Below are positions 4,591 to 62,951 of a stretch of DNA of 64,000 bases, piece after piece. Location: positions 38,593-102,592 of the forward strand of contig JBNGDK010000001.1 of the NCBI GenBank assembly GCA_049975405.1, given 5' to 3'. The notes beneath the pieces are model-generated. The model was not told the origin of the DNA and did not search any database. It was given only the letters and a program-made list of their open reading frames with translations. How positions within the stretch are numbered: the first letter of the stretch is position 1; each line of letters opens with the position of its first letter. This DNA is from Candidatus Methanospirareceae archaeon (lineage in GTDB: Archaea; Halobacteriota; Syntropharchaeia; Alkanophagales; Methanospirareceae). Made by a program: the position numbers and the translations under genes.

Positions 4591-6144
<1,554 letters not shown>

Positions 6145-6226
6145 GCTGAAAGTATCGTCGGATTGTGGGTGAGCTTCTCAAAACTTTACATTATCGCATG
6201 GTGTATAGCTAGCTGGGAGATGGGCC

Positions 6227-6298
6227 GGGCTCGTAGATCAGTGGAAGATCGTCGCCTTTGCGAGGCGAAGGCCCTGGGTTCAAATCCCAGCGAGTCCA
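6227..6298 (+). tRNA. tRNA-Ala (anticodon TGC) in the 16S-23S spacer
   Basis: Sequence is GGGCTCGTAGATCAGTGGAAGATCGTCGCCTTTGCGAGGCGAAGGCCCTGGGTTCAAATCCCAGCGAGTCCA. The acceptor stem is 7 bp with a G3:U70 wobble, which is the tRNA-Ala identity pair. CCA is not encoded. Confidence 0.9.
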
Positions 6299-6456
6299 TC
6301 CATGCGTGGGACTGATGGTGAGGAAGCTGTATGTATGTAAATGCACCTAGCAACCCGGGTGTTGCTAGGGAAGTACCGATGGCGAGGCGTGGCCTCTGCC
6401 AGATGAGGTGTGTAGACGCACTTGACAACTCTGACATCCAATGGGCTTAGTGAGAC

Positions 6457-9385
<2,929 letters not shown>

Positions 9386-9535
9386 ATCTCGCTGAGCTCA
9401 GATGAAATCAGAGTTGCAAGTGCGTTTGCCCTTTTCCTCACCTTCTTATTTTTGTAAGAGCACGTAACCACGGTAGTGGAACTCAGGCACATAACCTATT
9501 TTTAGATCTCAGTGCTATCAATTAGCAAGAGTTGG

Positions 9536-9607
9536 GCCAGGGTGGCGGAGCGGCTACGCGGCTGACTGCAGATCAGCTACACCCCAGTTCGAATCTGGGC
9601 CCTGGCT
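9536..9607 (+). tRNA. tRNA-Cys (anticodon GCA) immediately downstream of 23S
   Basis: Acceptor stem is GCCAGGG/CCCTGGC. Anticodon stem is GCTGA/TCAGC with loop CTGCAGA. T-arm is CCCAG-TTCGAAT-CTGGG. Confidence 0.85.
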
Positions 9608-13673: not shown

Positions 13674-14285
13674 ATGAAACACGAAAAGCTGAGTACCACG
13701 GAACGTTTAAAGCTCGTGAAACTGCTCGGCCTGTTTACCCTGCTGGCCGCTTTTTTGATCCTGGCTCTACTGCCGCTGGTGAACGCCGGGCGGCTCCCGA
13801 TCTGGACCCCGTGGCTCGTGCTCAGTGCCGGCGCCGTTGGCTGGTTTGCGGTTGAGCTCTTGGTGGAAAAACCGGCGGGCACGAGGTTGAAGAAGGCCCT
13901 GATCGTCGCGATCTTCCTAATGCTCTTCGATTTCATCTTCGAGAATTCGGGTACGATCTTCAATTTATGGTACAGCTCGAACAATTTGGTGCCCGTATGT
14001 ATGCCCATAGAATCGATCCATCCCGCCTGCGTGCCGATCGAGGTGATGCTGGTCATCCTGTTTGGCGGCGCGGCATGGGCGCTCTATGTGCCGCAGGACT
14101 TCAAGCTCACCTATAGCGTGCTGGATATCCTCCTCATTGCCTCCTTCGGCGCGATTGGCGAATTCATACTGATCCAGTTCGGATTGATGCATTACCTCCA
14201 GTGGTGGACCTCGGTGCACGCCTTCCTCTCGTACATGGCCACGTGGATACTGCTCCATCTCGTGCGGTACCGGGTTGTTGGCTGA
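13674..14285 (+). CDS. Polytopic membrane protein, unknown function
   Basis: 203 aa with about six hydrophobic segments. It follows the small membrane ORF with a 9-nt gap. Confidence 0.4.
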   Translation: MKHEKLSTTERLKLVKLLGLFTLLAAFLILALLPLVNAGRLPIWTPWLVLSAGAVGWFAVELLVEKPAGTRLKKALIVAIFLMLFDFIFENSGTIFNLWYSSNNLVPVCMPIESIHPACVPIEVMLVILFGGAAWALYVPQDFKLTYSVLDILLIASFGAIGEFILIQFGLMHYLQWWTSVHAFLSYMATWILLHLVRYRVVG

Positions 14286-14314
14286 GGCTTACAAATCGTA
14301 AAGCTTATCGTTAG

Positions 14315-14872
14315 TTACAGCCCGAGCTGTTCCATCCACCACAATAGCGCGGTCAAAGCGGCAGCCACGGGAATCACGAGGATCCACGGGTTTACTTTGA
14401 AGAGCGTTGGCAAGGTGAGCTCGCCGAAGTCGCCTTTGCTCAGAATCGTCTGCTGTAATTTTGGATAGAGCGCGGCAAACACACCCGCGCCGATCAGCAT
14501 CCCGACGACGCCGCCAAAGAGCGCGTCGAGCGAGCCCTGGCCGACCGCACCCGCGACCGTCCCCGGGCAGTAGCCGAGAATGCCGAAGCCGATGCCGAAG
14601 AGCAGACCTCCGATGACTGAGGCACCAAATGATCCCGGCTTGGGATGGAGCTGGGCCAGGCCCAGGCTGCGGAGCAGGTGCACACCCAGCATCCCGGTGA
14701 TCGAGGCTGCGAGCATGATCTTAACCACGGTGAAATCGGTGAGCAGCAACTGCCCAATGATCACATTGTAGTCCGTCACGCCACCTTTCTGGAGCAGGAA
14801 GCCGAATATGATCCCGATGAGTAGTCCAAGCACCAGTTGCAGGTTCTTCTTCTCGTGCAATCCTGTTAACAT
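14315..14872 (-). CDS. YeeE/YedE-family sulfur-compound transporter, half-protein (second of a split pair)
   Basis: 185 aa. It has a Gly-rich re-entrant motif with a conserved Cys (GFGILGYCPGT) typical of YeeE/YedE (TsuA-like). Confidence 0.7.
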   Translation of the reverse strand: MLTGLHEKKNLQLVLGLLIGIIFGFLLQKGGVTDYNVIIGQLLLTDFTVVKIMLAASITGMLGVHLLRSLGLAQLHPKPGSFGASVIGGLLFGIGFGILGYCPGTVAGAVGQGSLDALFGGVVGMLIGAGVFAALYPKLQQTILSKGDFGELTLPTLFKVNPWILVIPVAAALTALLWWMEQLGL

Positions 14873-14884
14873 GCGTTCGCCCTC

Positions 14885-15403
14885 CTACCCGATGACATGA
14901 AAGATGAGCATCGCCGCGGCGATACCGCCGATGAAGAAGCAGATCGCAGCGAGCCAGCTACTGACCGCTAACTGGAGTGTACCACTGATCCCGTGGCCGC
15001 TGGTGCAGCCACCCGCCCAGCGCGCGCCGAAGCCCATGAAGAAACCACCAATGATCGCCACGAGCCACCGGAGTGCCGGACTGGTACCAAAGGTCGCGGC
15101 CCACGTGCTCGGCACCCAGATCAGCTGAAAGGAGCCCGAGAGCTGCGCGGAGATGAATGCGCCGATCACAACACCCACAACGAGCATCCACTCCCAATCA
15201 ACAACGGGCGCGAACTTCTGGTAATACGGCTTCTCCAGCACCGTCTTGCCGCGGACGAGCCGCTCAAGCATCCCGCTCGTACGCGCATATGCGGTTGAGC
15301 AGCCGATCGGCTTGTCGGAGAGCACGAAGGCGAACCAGCTCAGGACTCCGATGCCGATACCCACCATATAGGGTGACCAGCGTGCCATCGTGAGCCAATC
15401 CAT
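14885..15403 (-). CDS. YeeE/YedE-family sulfur-compound transporter, half-protein (first of a split pair)
   Basis: 172 aa membrane protein with the YeeE/YedE-type motif (GFGARWAGGCTSGHG). It lies 13 nt upstream of its partner. Confidence 0.7.
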   Translation of the reverse strand: MDWLTMARWSPYMVGIGIGVLSWFAFVLSDKPIGCSTAYARTSGMLERLVRGKTVLEKPYYQKFAPVVDWEWMLVVGVVIGAFISAQLSGSFQLIWVPSTWAATFGTSPALRWLVAIIGGFFMGFGARWAGGCTSGHGISGTLQLAVSSWLAAICFFIGGIAAAMLIFHVIG

Positions 15404-15406
15404 CCC

Positions 15407-16849
15407 TCATCCCCCCCTCTTCTCTTGTGGTTCGGGCGTGAAGAATCGCGGCCCGTGTGGCACGGAGCAGACCGGGCATTCGAGGCCGTAGCCTGCCGCG
15501 TTGTAGCCCGTCATGCCGCCTGCGACGTTGAAAACCTCCGTGAATCCTCGTTGCTTCAGAATGCTCACGCCCATACTCGAGCGATGGCCGGTATTGCAGA
15601 TGACGATCGTTGGCGCGGTCGGATCAAGTTCCGTGTACCGCGTTCGGAGATCCGCGAAGGGGATGTTGAGCGCACCGTTAATATGATACGCCGCGTACTC
15701 GCTCGGCGAGCGCACGTCAATGAGTACCATCTTCTGATCGCCGGTGATCGCTTGACGGAACGCTCCTATCGATAGCTGCCGGACGTAACTCGTCGGTAAG
15801 CCAGCCTTCGCCCATTCGAACATCCCGCCGTCAAGATAGCCGATGACCTTATCGAGCCCAACGCGTCTCAGCCAGACCTGAGCCGCTTCGGCCTGCTCGC
15901 TGCTGTCCGTCACCAGAAGAATATCAGCGTCCGGCGGTAGCACCCAGCCCGCGAAGGTGGCGAAATTGCCCGCGAAGTCGATGTGAAACGCTCCGGGCAC
16001 ATGCTGGCACCCGAAGGAGTCGTAACCACGTACACCGACAACGATCGTATCATCCCGTTTCGACCGCTCGTAGAAGGACTTCGGGTCTAAAGCAGCCAGT
16101 GCCGGCAGGGTCCGCACCAGTGTAGGTCCGCGGCGGTTGATCTCGCTGCAGCGACTGAAATGATCGGGGGCCGGAGGCATGTCTGTGGTCAGCGAGCCGA
16201 TGAACTCCTCACGATCCGCGATCTGCAGTTCTGGATTATACTTCCGTTCATACCCGATGGTGCTCGTCCGCTTCGCGCCGAGCATACGACCGCAGAGCGA
16301 GCCAGCGCCGTGCGCAGGATAGACCTCACAGAAGTCCGGCAGGTGGAGCAGTTTCTCGTGCAGGCTCTCATACAACTTCGACGCCAGCTCGCGCGCCCTG
16401 CCCGGGAAGAGATCCGGTCGGCCAACATCGCCGACGAAGAGCGTATCGCCACAGAAGACACTCACCGGCTCCTCCCCCCGCGTGCTGTCCGAGACCACGT
16501 AGCTGATATGCTCGGGTGTGTGTCCCGGCGTTTCCAGAACTCGAAGCCGCATATTTTCGATCCCAAAGTGGTCACCTTCGGCGACACCAACATGGTTGAA
16601 GGCGCAATGTGCGGATTTCGGCGCGTAAATCTGCGCGTTCGTTCGGTCTGCCAGCTCGAGATGTCCGGAGACGAAGTCGGCATGGAGATGTGTCTCCAAA
16701 ACATGGGTGATATCCATGCCCATAGCTTTGGCCGCTTCAAGATAGAGTTCCACATCACGCCGAGGATCGATGATCGCGCAGGTCTCGGTTCCGCCAAGCA
16801 AATAGGAACTGTGCGCCAGCCCCTTAACAAAAAACTGCTGAATAATCAT
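15407..16849 (-). CDS. Metallo-beta-lactamase-fold (ETHE1/GloB-like) domain fused to two rhodanese domains (CstB-like persulfide dioxygenase-sulfurtransferase architecture)
   Basis: N-terminal HxHxDH (HLHADFVSGH). Two C-terminal rhodanese modules follow, the last carrying the active-site loop CNTGHRS. Confidence 0.75.
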   Translation of the reverse strand: MIIQQFFVKGLAHSSYLLGGTETCAIIDPRRDVELYLEAAKAMGMDITHVLETHLHADFVSGHLELADRTNAQIYAPKSAHCAFNHVGVAEGDHFGIENMRLRVLETPGHTPEHISYVVSDSTRGEEPVSVFCGDTLFVGDVGRPDLFPGRARELASKLYESLHEKLLHLPDFCEVYPAHGAGSLCGRMLGAKRTSTIGYERKYNPELQIADREEFIGSLTTDMPPAPDHFSRCSEINRRGPTLVRTLPALAALDPKSFYERSKRDDTIVVGVRGYDSFGCQHVPGAFHIDFAGNFATFAGWVLPPDADILLVTDSSEQAEAAQVWLRRVGLDKVIGYLDGGMFEWAKAGLPTSYVRQLSIGAFRQAITGDQKMVLIDVRSPSEYAAYHINGALNIPFADLRTRYTELDPTAPTIVICNTGHRSSMGVSILKQRGFTEVFNVAGGMTGYNAAGYGLECPVCSVPHGPRFFTPEPQEKRGG

Positions 16850-16959
16850 GTTTATCTCTCTATCCCTCCAGTAGGGTTGCTAATGCGCCCCGTGCGATAA
16901 ATAAGTTATGCAGCGCACGAGCAGACTAGGGATGCTGAGGAACGAACGGTGGTGAATGG

Positions 16960-25178: not shown

Positions 25179-27521
25179 ATGAAGCCAAATCCTTCGCGCT
25201 CTTGCTGGGTTTTGGTCTTTGCAGTTCTCTGCTCTATCTGTTTCAGCGGCTGCCTCGAGCCCACTCCAACAGAACCGGAAGAGACAATGGCAACCTTACA
25301 AACCGCTGCGATTGATCTGTCGAGCGCGGAAGCGACGGCGAAGACGCGATTCATCGAATATTATTCGTTACCTGCGCTGAATATCAGTTTACAGACCGCG
25401 CAGTACAGTCTACCGCTCGATACCGATAAGGTCAGTAACTACCGCGAGTTCTCGCGTACAATCTCACTGGATGAAGCTGCTATACAACTCTTGGAGACAA
25501 ACGGGTTCGTCGTCATCGATTATCCGTTCAACGCACATGAGGAGGATATAACAACACCATATACCACCCTAAAGGATCGCGAGATACCGATCTTCATCAC
25601 CGCCGATTCGCTCCTGCATCTCTATCATATCCAGTTCGATGAAACGCTGCGGCAGATCGAGGAGCGCGAATTTTACGACCTCATCTGGGAGATCAGCCGT
25701 GAGCTGTTGAACGAGTCTGTAGCTGATTATAACCGGTACGACGGCGAGCTGAAGGAAGCTGCACGCAGGAATACGGCCTACTTCGCGGTCGGTTTGAGCC
25801 TGTTGCAGCCACGGGAGGATCAGCTCTGTACCGACGGCTGGGAATGTCGGGATCCCGGGCTGGCGAGCGCGTATTTCACCTCAGAGGAGTTGGTGATCTA
25901 TAGTTTCGAGGTACCGGATTTTGTGAAGGCTGAGGTTGAGGCGGAATTAGCGCTGATCGAGACCCACGCTGGCTTAGAGACGTCACCGATCTTCAGGTAT
26001 GCAGAGGATTACTCGCAATACGTGCCGCGGGGGCATTACACGCGGAGCGAGAAGCTGAAGAATTATTTCAAAGCGTTCATGTGGTACGGCCGTCTCAGTT
26101 TCTTGCTGAAAGGCCGTCCGGAAGGATTGGTCGCGGAAGAAGACGCCAGACTACAGACGATGGGCGCGGCGCTCATTACAACGCACTTAGAGCAGCAGCC
26201 GGCGTTACAGGCAAAGTGGGATCGGATTTATGCCGTCACTGCGTTCTACGTTGGACTCTCCGACGACCTGGGCCCCTATGAGTACCGGGAGGCCTTGAAT
26301 TCCGTGTTCACCGGAACGTTCGAGCCGACCATGCTCACCGAAGAGCGCGTGAAGGACTTGAAGACGAAGCTCGCTGAGTATCGTTCGCCTGAAATCTACG
26401 GTGGCACGGGCGATTGCGTGATTCCACCGCCGTTCACACCGGAACAGGCCGATGAGTGCCTGGAGGCCACCAAAGGATTCCGGTTGATGGGCCAGCGGTT
26501 CATTCCTGATTCCTACATGTTCTCGAATCTGGTTGGTACGTATACAGATATCTATCAGGGCGATCGAGAGCCGAAACCGTTTACGTACGTAGTTTCAGGC
26601 GCGGGCCGCCCGATACGGGGATTCCCGCGCGGTCTGGACGTCATAGCGCTCTTGGGCGCTGCTCGCGCACGGGCGCTCCTGGACGAGCTGGATGATTCCA
26701 ATTATAAAGGGTACGTTGCGGCGTATAGCGACTTAGCGGCGGAATTCCAGAACTTCAGCGACGCTGACTGGAACCAGAATTTATACTGGAGCTGGCTCTT
26801 CACGCTCCAGCCACTCTTAAAAACGTACGGCACCGGCTATCCGACTTTTATGCAGTCCACAGCATGGCAGGACAAAGCGCTCACCACCGCGCTCGCCTCA
26901 TGGACCGAGCTGCGGCACGATACCATACTCTACGCGAAACAGAGCTATACCATGGTGGAATCCGCGATGCCGATGCCAACGCCGGAGAAAGAGGTGGTCG
27001 GCTATATCGAGCCGGCGCCTGAGTTTTACAACCGGTTGCTGGCACTGACCCGGATGACCACGGACGGCCTGGAGAGCATGGATGTGCTGGACGAACCGGC
27101 GAAGTACCGGTTAGAGCGGTTAGAGACGATTTTGGAGCGTCTGGTGGTCTTATCTGGGAAGGAGCTGGCGAACGAGGAATTGACCGAGGCTGATTACCAG
27201 TTCATCGAGAACTTCGGCGACGAGTTGAACGACGTGATCGCGGAGGTCGATGAGAAGGCGAAGAAGACCACGATCGTCGCGGACGTCCACACGGAAGGGA
27301 ACACCGGGCAGGTGCTCGAGGAAGGGGTCGGGTACGTCGATCTGATAGTCGTGGCCTACAAGGTTCCCGACGGGCGAATACTAATCGGTGCGGGCCCTGT
27401 GCTGAGCTATTACGAGTTCAAGCAGCCCATGCAGAACCGGCTAGCAGACGAGCAGTGGCGTGAGTTGCTCCAGGATGAGCCACCCGCGCGGCCGGAATGG
27501 TACGTTAATTTCGCCCGGTAA
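25179..27521 (+). CDS. Large secreted lipoprotein-like protein of unknown function
   Basis: 780 aa. N-terminal signal with lipobox-like Cys (LCSICFSGCLEP). No catalytic motif recognised. Confidence 0.5.
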   Translation: MKPNPSRSCWVLVFAVLCSICFSGCLEPTPTEPEETMATLQTAAIDLSSAEATAKTRFIEYYSLPALNISLQTAQYSLPLDTDKVSNYREFSRTISLDEAAIQLLETNGFVVIDYPFNAHEEDITTPYTTLKDREIPIFITADSLLHLYHIQFDETLRQIEEREFYDLIWEISRELLNESVADYNRYDGELKEAARRNTAYFAVGLSLLQPREDQLCTDGWECRDPGLASAYFTSEELVIYSFEVPDFVKAEVEAELALIETHAGLETSPIFRYAEDYSQYVPRGHYTRSEKLKNYFKAFMWYGRLSFLLKGRPEGLVAEEDARLQTMGAALITTHLEQQPALQAKWDRIYAVTAFYVGLSDDLGPYEYREALNSVFTGTFEPTMLTEERVKDLKTKLAEYRSPEIYGGTGDCVIPPPFTPEQADECLEATKGFRLMGQRFIPDSYMFSNLVGTYTDIYQGDREPKPFTYVVSGAGRPIRGFPRGLDVIALLGAARARALLDELDDSNYKGYVAAYSDLAAEFQNFSDADWNQNLYWSWLFTLQPLLKTYGTGYPTFMQSTAWQDKALTTALASWTELRHDTILYAKQSYTMVESAMPMPTPEKEVVGYIEPAPEFYNRLLALTRMTTDGLESMDVLDEPAKYRLERLETILERLVVLSGKELANEELTEADYQFIENFGDELNDVIAEVDEKAKKTTIVADVHTEGNTGQVLEEGVGYVDLIVVAYKVPDGRILIGAGPVLSYYEFKQPMQNRLADEQWRELLQDEPPARPEWYVNFAR

Positions 27522-33294: not shown

Positions 33295-34215
33295 ATGAGA
33301 AAAAGAGCGGATTACCTCGGCAGGAAACGTACGCTAATCTTTATTTTCTTTCTTCTAATGGGGATTTCGGCTCTGCCCGTGATGGCGAGCGCGCTTCCTG
33401 ACGAGAGCTGTAGTGGTACTGTGAACGAAGAGCAGCAAGAGATCCTCTGGCAGGGTGACGTGATTCTAACGAACAGAACGACGATCACGGTGACGGCGCA
33501 CAATAGCGGCGTTGAGTATGAGGTGAACGAAACGACTGCGCTCGGGGCATTGGACGCAGCCGCGACCGCCGGCGCGTTCAACTACACGGTGACGGACGAA
33601 TGGGGCTTCCTCTTCGCCGACTCGATCGCGGATGTCGCGCAAGAGGGCTGGAGCGGGTGGATCTACTGGGTGAACTACCCGGCGAAGCCGATGCCGCTGG
33701 TGGGCGCGACCGACCACGCGGTAGAAGATGGCGATGTGGTGACGTGGTACTGGAGCAGCAGCATGGAGATGACACCCGCGGATTCGCCACTGCTCGTGAT
33801 CATCAACGTCTCTGTGACGGAAGATCCAACGTCGCCAACACCAGATCCCACGCTTGAGCCTACGCCAGCGCTATCACCACGCCGCAGTGGCGGAAGGCGT
33901 GAACCACAGGACTCCGATGCCGATGGCTACTCAGACATCAAGGAACTTCTGGCCGAAACCAATCCGAACGATCCCACTGACTACCCGGGCAAAGTGCGTG
34001 CAGAAGTCACCATGACGACACCTGCACCATCCTCAACACCAATGAGCACGCCAGCACTAACACCAACTGCAACGCTGCCACAAACCTCGGTTGCAATAAC
34101 GCCGCCACCCGCATCATCAACCGCAACGCTTCAGGCGCCGGGTTTTGAAGCCATAGCTCTCATCGCCGGGTTGCTCGCCACAGCCTGTATCCTCAAACGA
34201 AAAACGAGCCGGTAA
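33295..34215 (+). CDS. Secreted protein with transcobalamin-like beta-domain (DUF4430-like) and C-terminal PGF-CTERM archaeosortase signal
   Basis: N-terminal signal peptide. GWSGWIYWVN...GDVVTWYW motif resembling DUF4430. Thr/Pro-rich linker. C-terminus ...LQAPGFEAIALIAGLLATACILKRKTSR. Confidence 0.6.
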   Translation: MRKRADYLGRKRTLIFIFFLLMGISALPVMASALPDESCSGTVNEEQQEILWQGDVILTNRTTITVTAHNSGVEYEVNETTALGALDAAATAGAFNYTVTDEWGFLFADSIADVAQEGWSGWIYWVNYPAKPMPLVGATDHAVEDGDVVTWYWSSSMEMTPADSPLLVIINVSVTEDPTSPTPDPTLEPTPALSPRRSGGRREPQDSDADGYSDIKELLAETNPNDPTDYPGKVRAEVTMTTPAPSSTPMSTPALTPTATLPQTSVAITPPPASSTATLQAPGFEAIALIAGLLATACILKRKTSR

Positions 34216-34221
34216 CCAAGA

Positions 34222-35898
34222 ATGAGCAGATCAAGCCTCTTTCCTTCTTTTATCCCTCATCCATGTCTGTTCTCCGTTCTCTTAGTGGTTGCGCTATTTC
34301 TCACGCTACCCCTGACGCTCGCCGCCGTGAGCGACAGGGGGGGATACCCCATGCTCCAGTACGACGCGCAACGTACCGGGAACGCGAGCCGCACGGCACC
34401 AGGAACCGCCACGCTGCTCTGGCAATCGAGCGAGAAGACCGCCGGCTGCTTCCAGGCGGGACCAATCGTTGCCAACGACCGGGTCTACGTGGCTACCTGG
34501 GCGTCGTGGATGGCTGGAAATGCCACTGATGCGCTCTACTGCCTTGATTTGGAGACAGGCAGGGAAATTTGGAATAACACGAACGTTTACGGCGCCTCAA
34601 CGGCGGCATGTGCTAACAACAGGCTCTTTCTGGGCACCACAGCCGGAACCTTGGCGTGCGTCAATGCGACGAGCGGTGAAGTCCTCTGGAATAAGCAAAT
34701 AGATCCGAGTGCTTCGTATCATGGCGTCGCCTCCTCGCCGCTGGTGCACGAAAATCTGGTGTACGTCCTGAGCTTCTCGGATGGCACGCTCCATGCCTTC
34801 TCCTTTGACGGCACCGAGCAGTGGCACTTCTCCACCGGCGGCCAGATCTTCTGCTACGCCTCGCCCGCGGCATATGCGGATAAACTGCTCTTCGCCGGAA
34901 ACGCAGCAAATCAGCACGCGCTCTACTGCATGAACCTGAGTACGCACGAGGTGGTCTGGAAGTTCACTACGGCCACTGAAATCCGGGCCACACCTACCAT
35001 TTGGGCGGACGAAGATTTGGTCTTCTTCTCCACGAAGTACGTCATCGGGAAACCACATGGCCTCTACGCACTCAATCTGAGCACGGGTGTAGAGTCCTGG
35101 AACGTCACGCACAAATCGAGCTGGGCTTCTCCCGCGTTGAGCGACGGAAAACTGTACATTGGAGGCTCGGCCGTCGATTCCACGCTCTATTGCTACAACG
35201 CACGCAACGGCTCGCTCCTCTGGAAGAACGAGGAGATGCGCGGCTCGATCGACTCTTCACCGGTCGTCGCTGGTGGGAAGGTGTACTTCGGCACGAATGA
35301 AGTTGATGGAACGGTCTTCGCGGTGGATGCGGACACGGGAACCACGCTCTGGAGCTACACGCTTCACATCCCCCCGGGCTATGGTGGAGGATACAATATA
35401 GCATCACATCCAGCCGTCGCTGATCGCACGTTACTTATAGGAGTCGATAATATCGGTGTACTCGCCTTTCGTGATCCGCAGTTCGCGGAATTCGATACTG
35501 GCACGCCGGAGCATCCGTATCCAAGCATCCCTGGTACATTTTATGGGTCGCTCACGCCCGCACACGATCTCTTGGTAAACACAATGCTCTCATGGGCATG
35601 CGACGGAACCGGCGGACATGTTGAATACGTTAGGATATGGAACGATACGTGGATAGGCGCAACCGCGCAGTGGAACGGGTACGTGGGCGATTGGCACACT
35701 ATCACGTTTTCGGAACCATTTCTGCTTCATAAAAACGAACTCTATTATTATCGTATAGAAATCGGCTCATACCCGCAGCTGCACCATAAAAACGAGCTTA
35801 TAGTGAGCGATGGGATGATCACTTGCACGAACTTCACCGATGCAAACGGGGTGGCCCATTACGGGGCAATTCCCGCAATACGGTTGTATTTCTGGTAA
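34222..35898 (+). CDS. Secreted PQQ-repeat beta-propeller protein with extra C-terminal domain
   Basis: 558 aa with an N-terminal signal peptide. Repeated LYCxD/xGxxLW blade motifs are present (e.g. ALYCLDLETGREIWN, LACVNATSGEVLWN). Confidence 0.7.
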   Translation: MSRSSLFPSFIPHPCLFSVLLVVALFLTLPLTLAAVSDRGGYPMLQYDAQRTGNASRTAPGTATLLWQSSEKTAGCFQAGPIVANDRVYVATWASWMAGNATDALYCLDLETGREIWNNTNVYGASTAACANNRLFLGTTAGTLACVNATSGEVLWNKQIDPSASYHGVASSPLVHENLVYVLSFSDGTLHAFSFDGTEQWHFSTGGQIFCYASPAAYADKLLFAGNAANQHALYCMNLSTHEVVWKFTTATEIRATPTIWADEDLVFFSTKYVIGKPHGLYALNLSTGVESWNVTHKSSWASPALSDGKLYIGGSAVDSTLYCYNARNGSLLWKNEEMRGSIDSSPVVAGGKVYFGTNEVDGTVFAVDADTGTTLWSYTLHIPPGYGGGYNIASHPAVADRTLLIGVDNIGVLAFRDPQFAEFDTGTPEHPYPSIPGTFYGSLTPAHDLLVNTMLSWACDGTGGHVEYVRIWNDTWIGATAQWNGYVGDWHTITFSEPFLLHKNELYYYRIEIGSYPQLHHKNELIVSDGMITCTNFTDANGVAHYGAIPAIRLYFW

Positions 35899-35899
35899 G

Positions 35900-36556
35900 A
35901 TGAACGAGAATAAGGCCTTCGTGTCCTGGAGTGGCGGAAAGGACAGCTCGCTTGCCTGTTTACGCGCTATGACGGCAGGCTGCGAGGTCTCGTATCTCCT
36001 GAACATGCTGGATGAGTCTGGCGAGCGCGAGCGAGCACATGGCACACGCCCGTTTCTGCTGCAACTGCAGGCAGAAGCGATGCACATTCCCATGATCCAG
36101 GTGAACGCCTCGTGGGAAATGTACGAGCCCGAATTCAAAGCCGCCGTGAGGAGACTGAAGCGCGAGGGGATAGAACGAGGCGTATTTGGTGATATTGATC
36201 TCCGCGAGCATCGCGCCTGGGTTGAACGCGTCTGTGAAGAGCTGGCGATCGAGCCCATACTTCCGCTCTGGGGGGTCGATCCTGATGCACTCTTACACGA
36301 GTTCGTCACATCAGGCTTCGAGGCTATCGTCGTCGCGACGCGGGTCAATAAGGACTGGCTCGGCCGGAAGATCGATGAGTCGTTCATCAGTGAGCTGCAG
36401 GAGTGCGAGTTCCACGCAGCCGGTGAATCCGGCGAGTATCATTCGTTCGTCATCAACGGTCCGCTCTTCAGGAGAAGGATACGGGTGAGCGAAACTGAAC
36501 GGGTGCGTCATGGCGACCACTGGTTCCTGGATATCACGCGGGGTGAGCTTGAATGA
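35900..36556 (+). CDS. PP-loop ATP pyrophosphatase of the Dph6/DUF71 (MJ0570-like) family
   Basis: Start MNENKAFVSWSGGKDSSLA, an SGGKDS PP-loop. The start is 2 nt after the upstream stop. Confidence 0.6.
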   Translation: MNENKAFVSWSGGKDSSLACLRAMTAGCEVSYLLNMLDESGERERAHGTRPFLLQLQAEAMHIPMIQVNASWEMYEPEFKAAVRRLKREGIERGVFGDIDLREHRAWVERVCEELAIEPILPLWGVDPDALLHEFVTSGFEAIVVATRVNKDWLGRKIDESFISELQECEFHAAGESGEYHSFVINGPLFRRRIRVSETERVRHGDHWFLDITRGELE

Positions 36557-38550
36557 GCACGCGCACACTCGTGGTTCTCTTTACTGTACTGGCGTTCTGC
36601 TTCAGCTCCACGATCTGCGTGGCGAGCAGCGTCACCCCCTGGAACTCTATCACCAATGACGCTTCTGAGAGCTTATCCCTCGATCTCCACCTGGACGAAT
36701 ATGCGGAGGTTGAATTCTCCGTTACTGCTGGCTCGTCCTATCGGTGGACGTGGATGGTGAACGGTGAAGTGATCAAGGAGACCGACGGAACGAGCTCAAA
36801 TCTCGAGTATGTCGTCAATGACTACGGCAGTTACGCTATCAGTGCCCGAGGCACCGGTGGAAATGAGACGCTTCAAGCCTCATGGAACCTGACCGTTTGG
36901 CTGGTCTTAGATAAAGAAAACGACGTTCGGGAACTCGAAGGGCTTGAGGACTACGTCTTACGGCTTTCTAAGAGACCCGAGCGGATCGTTTCTATGGCAC
37001 CGAGCTGCACGGAGTTCCTGTTCGCCGTTGGCGCCGGGGATCAGGTGGTCGGCGTGACGGAGTACTGCGATTATCCGTCCGAGGTGGTGGAGAAGAAGAA
37101 GCGTGGCGAAATAGGTGTGATCGGCGGCTATTCCACACCCAGCTTCGAGAAGATCGTGGCACTACAGCCCGATCTGGTCGTGGGCGCCTATGGCAATCCT
37201 GACGACGTGCTCTACTGGCTCGTTGACGAAAGCGCACACCCGGGGGTCATCTATCCGCTCTATGCACAGAACCCTGAGAACATCGAGGAGATCTTCCAGC
37301 ATCTCACGGTGGTAGGCGCGCTAACAGGCTGCAGAGCTGAGGCCGATTCACTGGAGTACGAGCTTCGAGAGAGAATAGCAGCCATCACAGCAGAGACCGC
37401 TTCCATTACTAAACAGGAGAAGCCGCGCGTCTTTTATAATATCGGCGATTTCTTCACCGCCGGTGACAATACTTTCGTCAACGAGGTCATTACGCTCGCG
37501 GGTGGCACAAACATTGCCGCCGAGTCCTCGGGTTACTTCGTTATGAACCTCGAAGAGCTGATCTATCGCAATCCGCAGGTAATTATCTGCGATAGCGGTA
37601 TGGGGAGCATGAGTCTCGCGTATGAGCAGATCATGGGGGACAAACGGCTGCAAATGCTCGATGCAGTAAAAAACAGCTGGGTGTACGTCATTGACGCCGA
37701 CATCATAGATCGGCCAAGCCCCCGCATTGTGGATGCTCTGGAGCTCGTCCACCTTGATTATAGCGACTTCTTCGTGGCCACACGCCCAACACCCTCACCG
37801 ACAGAATCTCCTTCATCAGCCAGCAGTGGTGGCTCGAGCGCGAAAGCTACCCCGACTGCTACAGCGCCCTCGACGGCCGCGTCGTCGCCACAGGTGACCG
37901 AAGCTGCGCGAATCGTTCCGGTGCTGAAGGCAGGTGAAGCTGCAGCAATGCTCTTCGCGGATATGGATATCTCGATGCTCACGCTCAGCTCGGATACCAC
38001 GGTCAGCGATGTAAGAATCGCGATAAAACGTGTGGCGAGACCCCCGAACGTTCCTGCGCCTCCTGCCACCACGTATGTATACCTTGACCTCACGGTCGCA
38101 ACAGAAGAAAGTTCACCGATCTCTGGCAGTATCGATTTTAAGGTGCTGAAATCGTGGCTCGAAGTCCATGATATTGCGGAGTCGACCGTTAGTCTTTCCA
38201 GATATGATGAGCGAGTTGGGTGGTCTAAACTATCCACCTCGCGCGTCGATGCGGACGATCTCTTCGTCTTCTTTGAGGCGGCGACGCCGGAGTTTTCGCT
38301 CTTCGCGATCACGGGAGAGCAGCAACCAAGGGCAGAAGGAACAACCGCCGCTCCGTCTGCTGCGCCTACCGCAACACCACGTCCCCTAAGCGATCCCGCA
38401 CAAACAGCAAACGCTCCTGTTGCAACATCCGAGCCAGAGACGAGCGCCGCAGGGATTCCGGGATACGAAGCGATCGGCGCGGCGATTGCGCTACTCATCA
38501 TTACTGTCCGCAGGCGAGGTAGAGGATTGAAATCCGGGACGGGGCGCTAA
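36553..38550 (+). CDS. Class III (BtuF/FhuD/TroA-type) substrate-binding protein with an N-terminal extra domain, a pre-PGF-like domain and a PGF-CTERM-like anchor
   Basis: Signal peptide. SBP core (RPERIVSMAPSCTEFLFAVGAGDQVVGV ... RPSPRIVDALE). Ser/Thr/Pro linkers. C-terminus ...AAGIPGYEAIGAAIALLIITVRRRGRGL. Confidence 0.75.
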   Translation: MSTRTLVVLFTVLAFCFSSTICVASSVTPWNSITNDASESLSLDLHLDEYAEVEFSVTAGSSYRWTWMVNGEVIKETDGTSSNLEYVVNDYGSYAISARGTGGNETLQASWNLTVWLVLDKENDVRELEGLEDYVLRLSKRPERIVSMAPSCTEFLFAVGAGDQVVGVTEYCDYPSEVVEKKKRGEIGVIGGYSTPSFEKIVALQPDLVVGAYGNPDDVLYWLVDESAHPGVIYPLYAQNPENIEEIFQHLTVVGALTGCRAEADSLEYELRERIAAITAETASITKQEKPRVFYNIGDFFTAGDNTFVNEVITLAGGTNIAAESSGYFVMNLEELIYRNPQVIICDSGMGSMSLAYEQIMGDKRLQMLDAVKNSWVYVIDADIIDRPSPRIVDALELVHLDYSDFFVATRPTPSPTESPSSASSGGSSAKATPTATAPSTAASSPQVTEAARIVPVLKAGEAAAMLFADMDISMLTLSSDTTVSDVRIAIKRVARPPNVPAPPATTYVYLDLTVATEESSPISGSIDFKVLKSWLEVHDIAESTVSLSRYDERVGWSKLSTSRVDADDLFVFFEAATPEFSLFAITGEQQPRAEGTTAAPSAAPTATPRPLSDPAQTANAPVATSEPETSAAGIPGYEAIGAAIALLIITVRRRGRGLKSGTGR

Positions 38551-38619: not shown

Positions 38620-39672
38620 ATGAAGCACGATGAACCGGTATATAGCGCACCGGGACTGCGAAAAGTACTCCACTGGAAGCTGGTGCTGATTTACTTGCTG
38701 CTCTTTCTTGGTCTCTCCATCATCTTGACCACGGCGATTGGGCCCGTGTACGTGCCGCCGCAGGAGATCGTCGCGTTGTTCGGTAGCAAACTCGGGCTCT
38801 GCGTCCCCTCCTCAGTGGCCCATGAGGTTATCATCTTCGAGATACGATTACCGCGGATTTTCCTCGGTCTCCTAGTCGGCATTGCCCTCGCCACCGCAGG
38901 AACAGCACTCCAGGGCCTGTTCAAGAACCCCATGGCCGACCCCTACATCATCGGCATCGCCTCCGGCGCCTCGGTCGGCGCCGCGCTCTCGATCCTGGTC
39001 ATCCCGCAGGTCTTCTCCATCTATACCACGCCGCTTATGGCCTTTCTTGGCGCGCTCTGCACCATCCTCGCCGTCTATAATATCGCGAAGGTCGGCGGTC
39101 GTATCCCCGTGGATACCCTCTTGCTCACCGGTATTGCCGTCTCCCTGTTCCTGGGCGCGGTGTTATCTTTTATGATGTCCATCGCCGGCGAGGCATTGCA
39201 TAACATCTTCTTCTGGACGATGGGCGGCTTCTGGCTCGCGAACTGGACGAAAGTGAAAATAACCCTGCTGCCCGTGCTTCTCAGCTTCGGCGTGATCTAT
39301 CTCTTCGCCAAGGACCTCAATGCCATGCTGCTCGGTGAAGAATCAGCACAGACCCTCGGCATCAATGTCGAGACGGCAAAACGGATCCTTCTGGTGCTCG
39401 CTGCGTTCATCACCGCCGCGGCCGTCGCGTTTACCGGTACCATCGGGTTCGTGGGGTTGATCATACCGCACATCACCCGAATTTTGGTGGGCCCCGATCA
39501 TCGCATCCTCTTTCCCGCCTCGGCATTACTGGGTGGGATTTTCCTCATTTGGACGGACGCACTGGCGCGGTTATTGGCCGAGATGCCCGTTGGCGTGATC
39601 ACCGCTTTCTTCGGTGCGCCGTTCTTCATTTACCTGCTGAAGAAGCGAAAGAGCGGATATGCCCTGGCATAA
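38620..39672 (+). CDS. FecCD/BtuC-family ABC transporter permease
   Basis: 350 aa and about 10 TM helices. A conserved Gly-rich motif (ADPYIIGIASGASVGAAL) is present. No ATPase gene follows. Confidence 0.85.
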   Translation: MKHDEPVYSAPGLRKVLHWKLVLIYLLLFLGLSIILTTAIGPVYVPPQEIVALFGSKLGLCVPSSVAHEVIIFEIRLPRIFLGLLVGIALATAGTALQGLFKNPMADPYIIGIASGASVGAALSILVIPQVFSIYTTPLMAFLGALCTILAVYNIAKVGGRIPVDTLLLTGIAVSLFLGAVLSFMMSIAGEALHNIFFWTMGGFWLANWTKVKITLLPVLLSFGVIYLFAKDLNAMLLGEESAQTLGINVETAKRILLVLAAFITAAAVAFTGTIGFVGLIIPHITRILVGPDHRILFPASALLGGIFLIWTDALARLLAEMPVGVITAFFGAPFFIYLLKKRKSGYALA

Positions 39673-39698
39673 CGGTAGAACCTAAAACTAGTTTGCAC

Positions 39699-40049
39699 TC
39701 ACTCAACCGCTACACCGACGGCACGCTGAATCAATCGCCCGATCTCATCGAGCTCCTTCTCAATCGGCCCTCGCTTATCCGGTATTTCAAGGATGATGGG
39801 CCGTACGCCCTTTTTCTTCGCATTGATGTCCCGGATCTTCTCACGGGTACGTGGATCAGCCGCCAGCTTCTCAGTGATAAGAATAAGCGCAAAGTCCTCG
39901 CGTACCAGGCGATCCAATACACGGACGGTATCCTCCCCTTCCTGGTCCTGCTCATACACCGCATTCACGCCCGCGAGCCGGAATCCCGTGGCGGTATCTG
40001 GATCACCAATCACTGCTACTGCGTTCATGTTCCCTTTTATAGAGTGCAA
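39699..40049 (-). CDS. atpF: A/V-type ATP synthase subunit F
   Basis: MNAVAVIGDPDTATGFRLAGV is the typical subunit F N-terminus. Confidence 0.8.
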   Translation of the reverse strand: MHSIKGNMNAVAVIGDPDTATGFRLAGVNAVYEQDQEGEDTVRVLDRLVREDFALILITEKLAADPRTREKIRDINAKKKGVRPIILEIPDKRGPIEKELDEIGRLIQRAVGVAVE

Positions 40050-52819: not shown

Positions 52820-52918
52820 CGCCGAGGAAGGGATTTGAACCCTTGAGTTCCTTTCGGAACACAGGCTATCTAGTCCGGAGAGCTCCAGGCCTGCGCCTTA
52901 CCGCTCAGCCACCTCGGC
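52820..52918 (-). tRNA. tRNA-Ser (anticodon GGA) with a ~15-nt intron 3' of position 37
   Basis: Reverse complement reads GCCGAGGTGGCTGAGCGGTAAGGCGCAGGCCTGGAG[CTCTCCGGACTAGAT]AGCCTGTGTTCCGAAAGGAACTCAAGGGTTCAAATCCCTTCCTCGGCG. 3-bp D stem, long variable arm, anticodon stem CAGGC/GCCTG. Confidence 0.75.
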
Positions 52919-61973: not shown

Positions 61974-62951
61974 CTATCGTCTGCTTCGTTTCCCGAGCCA
62001 TCGCAGGCCAATCAGAAGAGAGAAGCACATAATGACTGCGCCTGCCTCGAATCCAGGGATCCCTTTTGAATCCGGTGCCGGTGTCGGGCTGGGGATGAGC
62101 TCGCCTTCTTCCCGGTACGCGCTCTCCACGGCCGACAAGAGCTCTTCCCGGTGCACCGTATCCACCTTCCGGAAGCTGATGTACCCCTGCGGAGTGATGA
62201 CTACCACGGTTGGCGTGGCGAGAACATACCCCTGATATTTATGGGCCAGGTCCTCCGTGTCACGCGCAAACAGCCAATCAGCGTTGTAGGCCTCCTTGAA
62301 GCTTCTCAGATTCTCATCGGTTTCCAGCGGGTCAATGGACACGCTTATCACCTGCACCTCGGGATATGCTTCGCGCAGATACGCGAGTTCAGCCATCTCT
62401 TCCTGACACAGACTGCAGGAGGTCATAATGAGCGTGAGCACCACGACCTTACCGCGGAAATCACTGAGGCTGAATGTCCTGCTCTCGACGCTCGTCAGCG
62501 TAAACGGCGGTGCCATGATCGCGCCTTCCAGTACCGTAGGCGACGGTGAGCTGAGCGTGGTGGGATATTTCTCCTTCCATGCATTTATCCCGCCGGTGAT
62601 GCTGTACACATCCTTAAAGCCGTTCTGAACAAGGATATCTGCGGCGATTTGGCTGCTGCCACCTACCTGACAGTACACGATAATCTCCTTCGAGGGATCT
62701 AATTCATCAAGACGGCTCTCTAACTCCTTGACCGGGATGTTGATCGCGCCCGGTATATGCTCGGAATCGTAGGTTGCTGCAACGCGGACATCAAGCAGCG
62801 TTATCTCCTCGGGCCGCTCCTGCAGCCGTTGATACGCCTCATCCACCGAGATCTCCCCACGCTCTGCAGCTGCTAACCCAGCAGCGAGTACTGCGAACAG
62901 GAGCAGCGCAACCAGTACAGTTCCTGAAACGAGCTTCCTCGTATTGTGCAT
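61974..62951 (-). CDS. Secreted rhodanese-domain + TlpA/redoxin-like (CxxC) fusion protein with PGF-CTERM anchor
   Basis: Signal peptide. Rhodanese active-site loop CQVGGSS. Redoxin motif TSCSLC. C-terminus ...DSKGIPGFEAGAVIMCFSLLIGLRWLGKRSRR. Confidence 0.7.
   Translation of the reverse strand: MHNTRKLVSGTVLVALLLFAVLAAGLAAAERGEISVDEAYQRLQERPEEITLLDVRVAATYDSEHIPGAINIPVKELESRLDELDPSKEIIVYCQVGGSSQIAADILVQNGFKDVYSITGGINAWKEKYPTTLSSPSPTVLEGAIMAPPFTLTSVESRTFSLSDFRGKVVVLTLIMTSCSLCQEEMAELAYLREAYPEVQVISVSIDPLETDENLRSFKEAYNADWLFARDTEDLAHKYQGYVLATPTVVVITPQGYISFRKVDTVHREELLSAVESAYREEGELIPSPTPAPDSKGIPGFEAGAVIMCFSLLIGLRWLGKRSRR

Follow-up and report, generated by a model that had tools for sequence, protein, structure and literature searches.

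What does a secreted archaeal binding protein take up, and how does it serve its permease, when its C-terminus is what holds it to the cell? The question is raised by one gene in a 64,000-nucleotide stretch of DNA from a Candidatus Methanospirareceae archaeon (contig JBNGDK010000001.1 of assembly GCA_049975405.1); the whole stretch is called the window throughout, and positions are counted from its first letter. An earlier annotation, made by a model from the letters alone (hereafter the sequence-only reading), had placed here an ATP-binding cassette (ABC) substrate-binding protein with a C-terminal PGF-CTERM anchor, and had regarded such anchoring as unusual for archaea and as lying far from the face that docks on the permease. 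We find it quite likely that the gene encodes the extracellular binding subunit of a BtuCD-type (type II) importer for a corrinoid or a related tetrapyrrole, tethered at its C-terminus by a variant of the PGF-CTERM signal. The gene and the parts of its product, with confidence given as the predicted local distance difference test (pLDDT) of an AlphaFold2 model built on 57 homologs, are these:

36553-38550, + strand: binding-protein gene, ATG start, 665 amino acids; product BtuF-like, secreted and predicted to be C-terminally tethered
36553-36627, + strand: Sec-type signal peptide, residues 1-25, MSTRTLVVLFTVLAFCFSSTICVASS, read from the sequence; no canonical lipobox on inspection
36631-36909, + strand: N-terminal beta-sandwich, residues 27-119, all-beta, pLDDT 93-97
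36958-37782, + strand: cluster-A (class III, helical-backbone) substrate-binding core, residues 136-410, BtuF-like
37783-37899, + strand: linker 1, residues 411-449 (about 39), rich in Ser/Thr/Pro/Ala, disordered, pLDDT 25-43
37900-38316, + strand: PGF-pre-PGF beta-sandwich, residues 450-588, all-beta, pLDDT 80-93, the stalk
38317-38457, + strand: linker 2, residues 589-635 (about 47), rich in Ala/Pro/Thr/Ser, disordered, pLDDT about 28-43
38458-38550, + strand: PGF-CTERM-type tripartite tail, P636-G637-Y638-E639, then hydrophobic residues 640-652, then RRRGRGLKSGTGR

A chance open reading frame (ORF) can be discounted and the gene taken as real, because an identical protein is on record (P0001, in an NCBI metagenome-assembled genome (MAG) labelled 'Candidatus Methanospirareceae archaeon', where it is named 'helical backbone metal receptor') and because 225 homologs are found at E<=1e-5. 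The host family, Methanospirareceae, lies within the ANME-1/Methanophagales methane oxidisers, and the nearest orthologs, at 73-87% identity, are alike in length and layout; two close orthologs (P0002 and P0079) already carry the NCBI name 'PGF-pre-PGF domain-containing protein'. The frame drawn by the sequence-only reading proved exact, and the order of parts that it had proposed was recovered: a signal peptide, a beta-rich N-terminal domain of roughly 100 residues, a class III binding core, a Ser/Thr/Pro linker, a PGF-pre-PGF module, and a C-terminus of PGY followed by a hydrophobic stretch. In the model, residues 3-16 of the signal segment form a helix, after which confidence is low, and cleavage by signal peptidase I (SPase I) probably occurs after VAS/CVA. 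Cys is common near the signal cleavage site among the homologs. Anchoring through an N-terminal lipobox was considered and rejected: position -1 holds Ile, Leu or Thr, and several homologs have no Cys nearby. At the other end of the core, linker 1 is weakly conserved in the homolog alignment. The domain that follows matches the PGF_pre_PGF model TIGR04213 at 77.1 bits against a cut-off of 28 (E=1.4e-21); the match pairs residues 472-588 with positions 32-153 of the 153 in the model and lies ahead of the sorting tail. Disorder in the model then spans residues 589-638, and a terminal helix occupies residues 639-655.

The N-terminal sandwich has four Trp residues (W30, W65, W67 and W111) that are invariant in the homolog alignment, and no Pfam family claims it above threshold (BiPBP_C, 22.0 against 26.8 bits; PKD, 15.4 against 23.5). 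Judging from the alignment, the sandwich with its invariant Trp residues is a hallmark of the ANME-1 binding-protein family. It also contains two N-x-T sequons, at N104 (NET) and at N112-T114 (NLT). N112 and T114 are invariant or nearly so among the homologs, and the pair may be a conserved N-glycosylation site.

The class of the binding core is clear from both sequence and fold. Residues 145-383 match Peripla_BP_2 (PF01497) at 116.3 bits against a cut-off of 27.5, the core passes the TroA_like model NF038402 (36.3 bits against 30), and the AlphaFold2 model has the two lobes on a long backbone helix (residues 261-282) that define cluster A. At E<=0.001 there are 207 fold matches in the PDB, and the best 50 of the 207 are all cluster-A binding proteins. 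The top PDB match by sequence is Vibrio cholerae BtuF (5ysc; E=3e-25, 27% identity), followed by an uncharacterised 'iron-binding' protein, the heme binder ShuT and Escherichia coli BtuF. The top Foldseek match is again 5ysc, with a template modelling score (TM) of 0.80. All 57 homologs have glutamate at E154 and E334, one on each lobe, and in the alignment with V. cholerae BtuF these two residues fall on its TE and IEQ glutamates. Cluster-A binders dock their lobe glutamates on arginines of the permease, as seen in the BtuCD-F structures. One conserved acidic residue per lobe, together with an adjacent gene for a FecCD-type permease, is thus what we observe here, and by analogy E154 and E334 are the predicted docking residues.

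The binding-protein gene belongs to a compact run of five genes, in which it stands fourth; the gaps between them are 6, 1, -4 and 69 nucleotides. The other four are listed below.

33295-34215, + strand: operon gene 1, DUF4430 surface protein (PF14478, 26.2 bits against 23.8) with a PGF-CTERM tail
34222-35898, + strand: secreted PQQ-like/BamB-like beta-propeller (PF13360 and PF13570; PDB matches 3hxj and designed propellers)
35900-36556, + strand: Dph6-related ATP pyrophosphatase (PF01902, 181 bits; TIGR03679, 133.9 against 197.3)
38620-39672, + strand: BtuC/FecCD-type permease, 69 nucleotides downstream of the binding-protein gene (PF01032, 308.5 bits)

The permease finds its best NCBIfam model in BtuC (NF007081, 359 bits, under the cut-off of 461); it shares 36% identity with E. 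coli BtuC and has retained the IRLPR motif (R56/R59). The modelled DUF4430 protein has the transcobalamin beta domain as each of its best 14 PDB fold matches; DUF4430 is the C-terminal domain of transcobalamin-type B12 carriers. The stop codon of the pyrophosphatase overlaps the start codon of the binding protein as ATGA, so the two genes are co-transcribed and probably translationally coupled. The five-gene set is conserved in ANME-1/Methanophagales (loci L001-L016 and L080-L082), where one or two BtuF-like binding proteins stand beside the DUF4430 protein, the propeller, the pyrophosphatase and BtuC, with variation in order, duplications and fusions. Binder and propeller are fused in three homologs (P0060, P0064 and P0069, the last named 'cobalamin-binding protein' by NCBI), and DUF4430 is embedded in the propeller ORF region at three loci (L003, L005 and L006). 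That these parts are fused in various ANME-1 lineages suggests that they work together. The cobalt energy-coupling factor (ECF) transporter genes cbiM and cbiQ adjoin homologous clusters in two loci (L007 and L033). An Rfam search of the 64-kb window for a cobalamin riboswitch gave none.

The likeness to BtuF and BtuC, the transcobalamin-beta-like DUF4430 partner and the cbiM/cbiQ neighbours are the reasons for which we favour a corrinoid as the ligand, with some reserve. One alternative leaves the architecture and the tethering as they are and changes the ligand to heme, to an iron-siderophore or other metal chelate, or to a non-corrinoid tetrapyrrole such as F430. Heme binders (ShuT, 2r7a; RhuT; BhuT) and siderophore binders are near BtuF in sequence and fold, and in our Foldseek comparison they came close behind it, almost equal to BtuF in closeness to the core; the Joint Genome Institute (JGI) annotates many of the homologs as 'iron complex transport system substrate-binding protein'; and the BtuF equivalog model NF002894 reaches only 82.2 bits against its cut-off of 234. 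Against such a ligand, BtuF leads by sequence as well as by fold, no model fits the permease better than that of BtuC, the DUF4430 partner is transcobalamin-beta-like, and cobalt transporter genes stand beside homologous clusters. We therefore hold a non-corrinoid ligand to be possible and doubtful.

Some of these results also count against the assignment as a BtuCD-type binding subunit as such: the shortfall on the BtuF equivalog, the near parity of the heme and siderophore binders in fold, a second equivalog missed (TIGR04281, 146.9 bits against 325), and a transporter that is incomplete at the locus, with no gene for an ABC ATPase in the 64-kb window. On the 3' side of btuC the window continues with A-type ATP synthase genes on the opposite strand (window 38620-40049). 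At other ANME-1 loci (L007, L008, L010, L016 and L017) an unusually long ATPase, of 420-460 amino acids, with Walker A and LSGGQ motifs follows directly after btuC, so the ATPase of this lineage must be encoded elsewhere.

The second half of the question concerns the tail. Its last 30 residues read PGYE, then AIGAAIALLIITV, then RRRGRGLKSGTGR, and with the N-terminal signal peptide they give the tripartite layout; the hydrophobic run of about 13 residues lies in the modelled helix at residues 639-655. The five closest orthologs carry AAGIPGFEAIGAAIALLI, whereas our protein carries AAGIPGYEAIGAAIALLI, and the sole DNA difference within the motif is TTC versus TAC: a single T->A change at 38465, in the Tyr codon TAC at 38464-38466, sets this copy apart from all close orthologs. 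In the alignment of 57 sequences the motif is [P/S]-G-F-E (P in 40 and S in 17; G in 57/57; F in 55, Y in 1 and I in 1; E in 51), and the 20 alignment columns ahead of it vary freely. Related ANME-1 loci supplied 13 distinct tails, and every one of them has x-G-F plus a following acidic residue at its core. The motif is also shared by proteins of other kinds. Two unrelated proteins of the window, the DUF4430 protein and a rhodanese/thioredoxin-like protein, end in PGFEA followed by a hydrophobic stretch and basic residues; the second is

61974-62951, - strand: secreted protein with rhodanese and AhpC/TSA-thioredoxin-like parts, 325 amino acids, PGF-type tail (GIPGFEAGAVIM...KRSRR), ending GIPGFEAGAVIMCFSLLIGLRWLGKRSRR

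The occurrence of a like tail on so different a protein indicates a sorting signal in genome-wide use. Conservation of the motif across unrelated secreted proteins, combined with a hydrophobic stretch that is typical in length for a sorting signal and short for a permanent anchor, argues for a signal read by an enzyme and not for a mere anchor. On the strength of the alignment, we take the tail to be the positional ortholog of the PGF-CTERM signal, a lineage variant with Tyr in place of Phe.

The curated models give a less simple answer. With cut-offs of 18.8 bits for PF18204 and 24.5 bits for TIGR04126, neither model matched at E<=10, whether the full protein or tails of 27, 31 or 41 residues were searched. 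A tail reverted in silico from Tyr to Phe scored 12.5 and 9.4 bits on the two models, and an 87%-identical ortholog with a genuine PGF scored 12.2 and 9.8, all below the cut-offs. The miss is thus only partly due to Tyr, because the close clade scores poorly with PGF in place too. Other orthologs do pass: one on PF18204 only (P0003, 19.8 bits), and two on both models (P0009, 19.3 bits on PF18204 and 26.0 on TIGR04126; P0032, 34.2 and 24.6 bits). Precomputed PF18204 matches exist for 54 of 120 homologs among the matches listed. Within the window, the DUF4430 tail alone is a canonical PGF-CTERM (22.8 bits on PF18204), and the rhodanese/thioredoxin-like tail falls below both cut-offs, as in the clade of the binding protein. 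The curated PGF-CTERM models appear, from these scores, to under-call the sorting signals of the ANME-1-related lineage. The sequence-only reading had named the lack of a PGF-CTERM model hit as an outcome that would overturn its call, and to the letter that is the outcome here; its claim of a PGF-CTERM-type tail nevertheless stands as a statement of homology, since the orthologs carry PGF.

These scores, and the residue itself, leave room for a different view of the tail, namely that it is a plain C-terminal membrane anchor: a PGF-CTERM signal that has decayed or was never processed, in a type I membrane protein comparable to the oligopeptide binders of Sulfolobus and Aeropyrum, with no archaeosortase acting on it. 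Several facts that weigh against enzymatic tethering are ones that this view would accommodate. The signature Pro-Gly-Phe is not present, P636-G637-Y638 standing in its place; the Tyr is the sole case at the Phe column in the 57 homologs; and it replaces Phe, which only Gly exceeds in conservation within the motif. Permuting PGF is reported to block processing in Haloferax (Abdul Halim et al. 2016). The tail fails the PGF-CTERM models, as just described. When ORFs with at least three predicted transmembrane (TM) segments were compared with NCBIfam and Pfam, no member of the exosortase/archaeosortase family was found in the 64-kb window, nor among the TM-rich ORFs tested in about 230 kb of related ANME-1 loci, where the matches were confined to CbiM, CbiQ, glycosyltransferase-like proteins and ABC permeases. 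Working from one metagenome, the Meyerdierks data set, Timmers et al. (2017) report ArtA to be missing from ANME-1. Archaeal binding proteins anchored by a TM segment at the C-terminus, preceded by a Ser/Thr stretch, are, moreover, documented.

A plain anchor, however, needs no conserved [P/S]GFE beside a linker that varies freely, and would not require that unrelated proteins of the genome end in a like motif, that the hydrophobic stretch be so short, or that a PGF-pre-PGF domain sit ahead of the tail. The published record on the enzyme is itself divided: Table 2 of Timmers et al. (2017) gives two ArtA hits for the Stokke ANME-1 data and two 'Exosortase EpsH-related' domains for the Meyerdierks data, so that EpsH-related domains of the exosortase family appear in both ANME-1 data sets, at odds with the paper's own text. 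Chadwick et al. (2022) took the PGF-CTERM tails on ANME cytochromes as archaeosortase motifs. We regard a plain anchor as unlikely, and consider that an archaeosortase likely exists in the ANME-1-related lineage of this gene. The remaining alternative attributes the Tyr to an error of assembly or consensus, or to a rare neutral polymorphism of a single MAG, the population allele being PGF and the protein an ordinary PGF-CTERM protein. It fits a lone T->A substitution that one sequence, from one contig, attests and that is unmatched among the 57 homologs, but the frame is intact, the neighbouring codons match the orthologs and the sequence gives no sign of error, and we judge it quite improbable.

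If the tail is a sorting signal, the life of the protein can be outlined as follows. It would be exported by Sec, its signal peptide would be removed, and it would be held to the cell through the C-terminus only. The C-terminal helix would act as a transient membrane anchor until an archaeosortase cleaved at PG(F/Y) and transferred the chain to a covalent archaeal lipid, by analogy with ArtA of Haloferax volcanii. Linkers rich in Ser/Thr/Pro would probably be glycosylated, and the two of them, of about 39 and 47 residues, would combine with the PGF-pre-PGF sandwich, about 140 residues in size, into a stalk both long and flexible. From it the core could swing down, E154 and E334 docking on the IRLPR arginines of the BtuC-like permease. 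If PGY were left unprocessed, the protein would stay anchored by its helix and should still work. The sequence-only reading had seen a difficulty in the distance between anchor and docking face; this difficulty loses its force in the model, where some 85 disordered residues and the stalk sandwich would give ample reach.

The premise that such anchoring is unusual is wrong, since a curated family, TIGR04281 ('PGF-CTERM-anchored ABC transporter substrate-binding protein'), exists and a 2012 review describes C-terminally anchored archaeal binders. TIGR04281, which we take to be a haloarchaeal family, is the best-scoring named NCBIfam model for our protein (residues 138-460) and shares with it the PF01497 core, the linker and an archaeosortase-type tail. 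Its 330 positions, however, miss the N-terminal sandwich and the PGF-pre-PGF stalk, and our tail is PGY and fails the PGF-CTERM models. The review of Szabo and Pohlschroder (2012) covers crenarchaeal oligopeptide binders whose SPase I signal is combined with a glycosylated Ser/Thr stretch and, after it, a TM segment at the C-terminus; it also names a phosphate-binding protein of Haloferax as a predicted substrate of an archaeosortase. The oligopeptide binders of Sulfolobus solfataricus and Aeropyrum pernix resemble our protein in having the SPase I signal and a C-terminal anchor behind a Ser/Thr stretch, but belong to another class of binding protein and end in a plain TM segment without PGF, Crenarchaeota having no archaeosortases. 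In Haloferax volcanii the PGF tail (for example that of the S-layer glycoprotein) is cleaved and replaced by lipid, and ArtA, PssA and PssD are required; these ArtA substrates share with our protein a tripartite tail on a Sec substrate, whereas the motif here is PGY and its processing is predicted by analogy. BtuF itself (E. coli 1n4a and 2qi9; V. cholerae 5ysc) has the same two-lobe backbone-helix fold, lobe glutamates and adjacency to btuC, but it is about 250 residues long and free in the periplasm, whereas ours has 665 residues, is predicted to be tethered, and has a corrinoid as its putative ligand. In its predicted mode of action the protein resembles both TIGR04281 proteins and BtuF, but it is a member of PF01497 and TIGR04213 and of neither TIGR04281 nor the BtuF equivalog; what is particular to it is the N-terminal sandwich and the PGF-pre-PGF stalk, which belong to the ANME-1 family, and the single F->Y.

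The remaining operon genes allow a wider and more tentative reading. In it, the DUF4430 protein, the propeller and the stalked BtuF-like binder, each on an archaeosortase-type tail, would form a surface relay for corrinoid capture, and the pyrophosphatase would act on the imported cofactor. What suggests that the components act as one machine is that they are shuffled and fused, binder with propeller, propeller with DUF4430, and binder with the C-terminal domain of the propeller; we nonetheless regard the relay as a speculative proposal that may well be wrong. The propeller protein has an extra C-terminal domain of about 130 amino acids (residues about 425-558), ending ...TCTNFTDANGVAHYGAIPAIRLYFW, which is matched by no family model. 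It behaves like a mobile unit, being fused to BtuF-like binders in eight homologs (P0017, P0067, P0074, P0076, P0078, P0093, P0099 and P0114). Homologs of the pyrophosphatase adjoin btuF/btuC-like genes at loci from Dehalococcoidia and Bathyarchaeota (L018 10866-11492; L025 13347-14015), and its close relatives are widespread in bacteria (Chloroflexota, Desulfofervidus, Omnitrophica). Bacteria are not known to synthesise diphthamide. Identity as a true Dph6 was rejected on the score below the TIGR03679 cut-off and on the bacterial close relatives; with relatives beside btuF/btuC and common in bacteria, a true diphthamide enzyme is unlikely. It is conceivable from this gene context that the Dph6-related enzyme acts in corrinoid salvage, for example in an ATP-dependent amidation. 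Less likely than the relay is the notion that the PGF-type tails of ANME-1, dozens in number, are retained in the absence of a recognisable ArtA and served by a different processing enzyme.

Bacteroides offers a comparison for the relay. BtuG is a beta-propeller. In the published accounts of BtuG and BtuH, several surface-anchored accessory proteins are encoded beside a B12 transporter, as they are in the ANME-1 operon; there is, however, no sequence similarity to the operon proteins, and envelope and transporter type differ. We rejected the identification of the operon propeller as BtuG, as it has no sequence match to BtuG and matches the archaeal PQQ-like protein 3hxj, and we rejected BtuH as a relative of DUF4430, as BtuH uses DUF4465.

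A side observation concerns one of the related loci with cobalt transporter genes (L007, ANME-1 GoMg1). At 15293-16024, downstream of the btuC-ATPase pair, lies an ORF of 243 amino acids with a canonical PGFEA... tail; it stands between cbiM (14122-14769) and a 258-amino-acid, 6-TM ORF that looks like cbiQ (16137-16913). Its product would be a further protein anchored at the surface and encoded in cobalt/corrinoid surroundings.

Elsewhere the window holds three further features:

4636-9607: complete archaeal rRNA operon (16S 4636-6123, tRNA 6227-6298, 23S 6451-9387, tRNA 9536-9607)
25179-27521, + strand: DUF3160 secreted protein, 780 amino acids, end-to-end match at 729 bits
52820-52918, - strand: tRNA match of 99 nucleotides

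The long ORFs listed within the rRNA operon stretch are spurious and are not genes. The 780-amino-acid DUF3160 protein has no match in NCBIfam. Because its match spans 99 nucleotides, the tRNA at 52820-52918 is probably an intron-containing archaeal tRNA.

With C-terminal and archaeosortase-type anchoring of archaeal binding proteins already known, the finding changes little in the terms in which it was first put. It does provide an example of a stalk, made of two linkers and a beta-sandwich, that would reconcile a C-terminal anchor with docking on a permease, and a naturally occurring PGF->PGY change with which archaeosortase specificity could be probed. The operon, as a possible archaeal relay for corrinoid capture, is a more interesting lead than the tail itself, and the relay, if true, would be a functional analogue of Bacteroides BtuG/BtuH/BtuB. 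The methyl-transfer metabolism of these uncultured methane oxidisers is corrinoid-dependent, and the conserved ANME-1 operon may show how they scavenge corrinoids.

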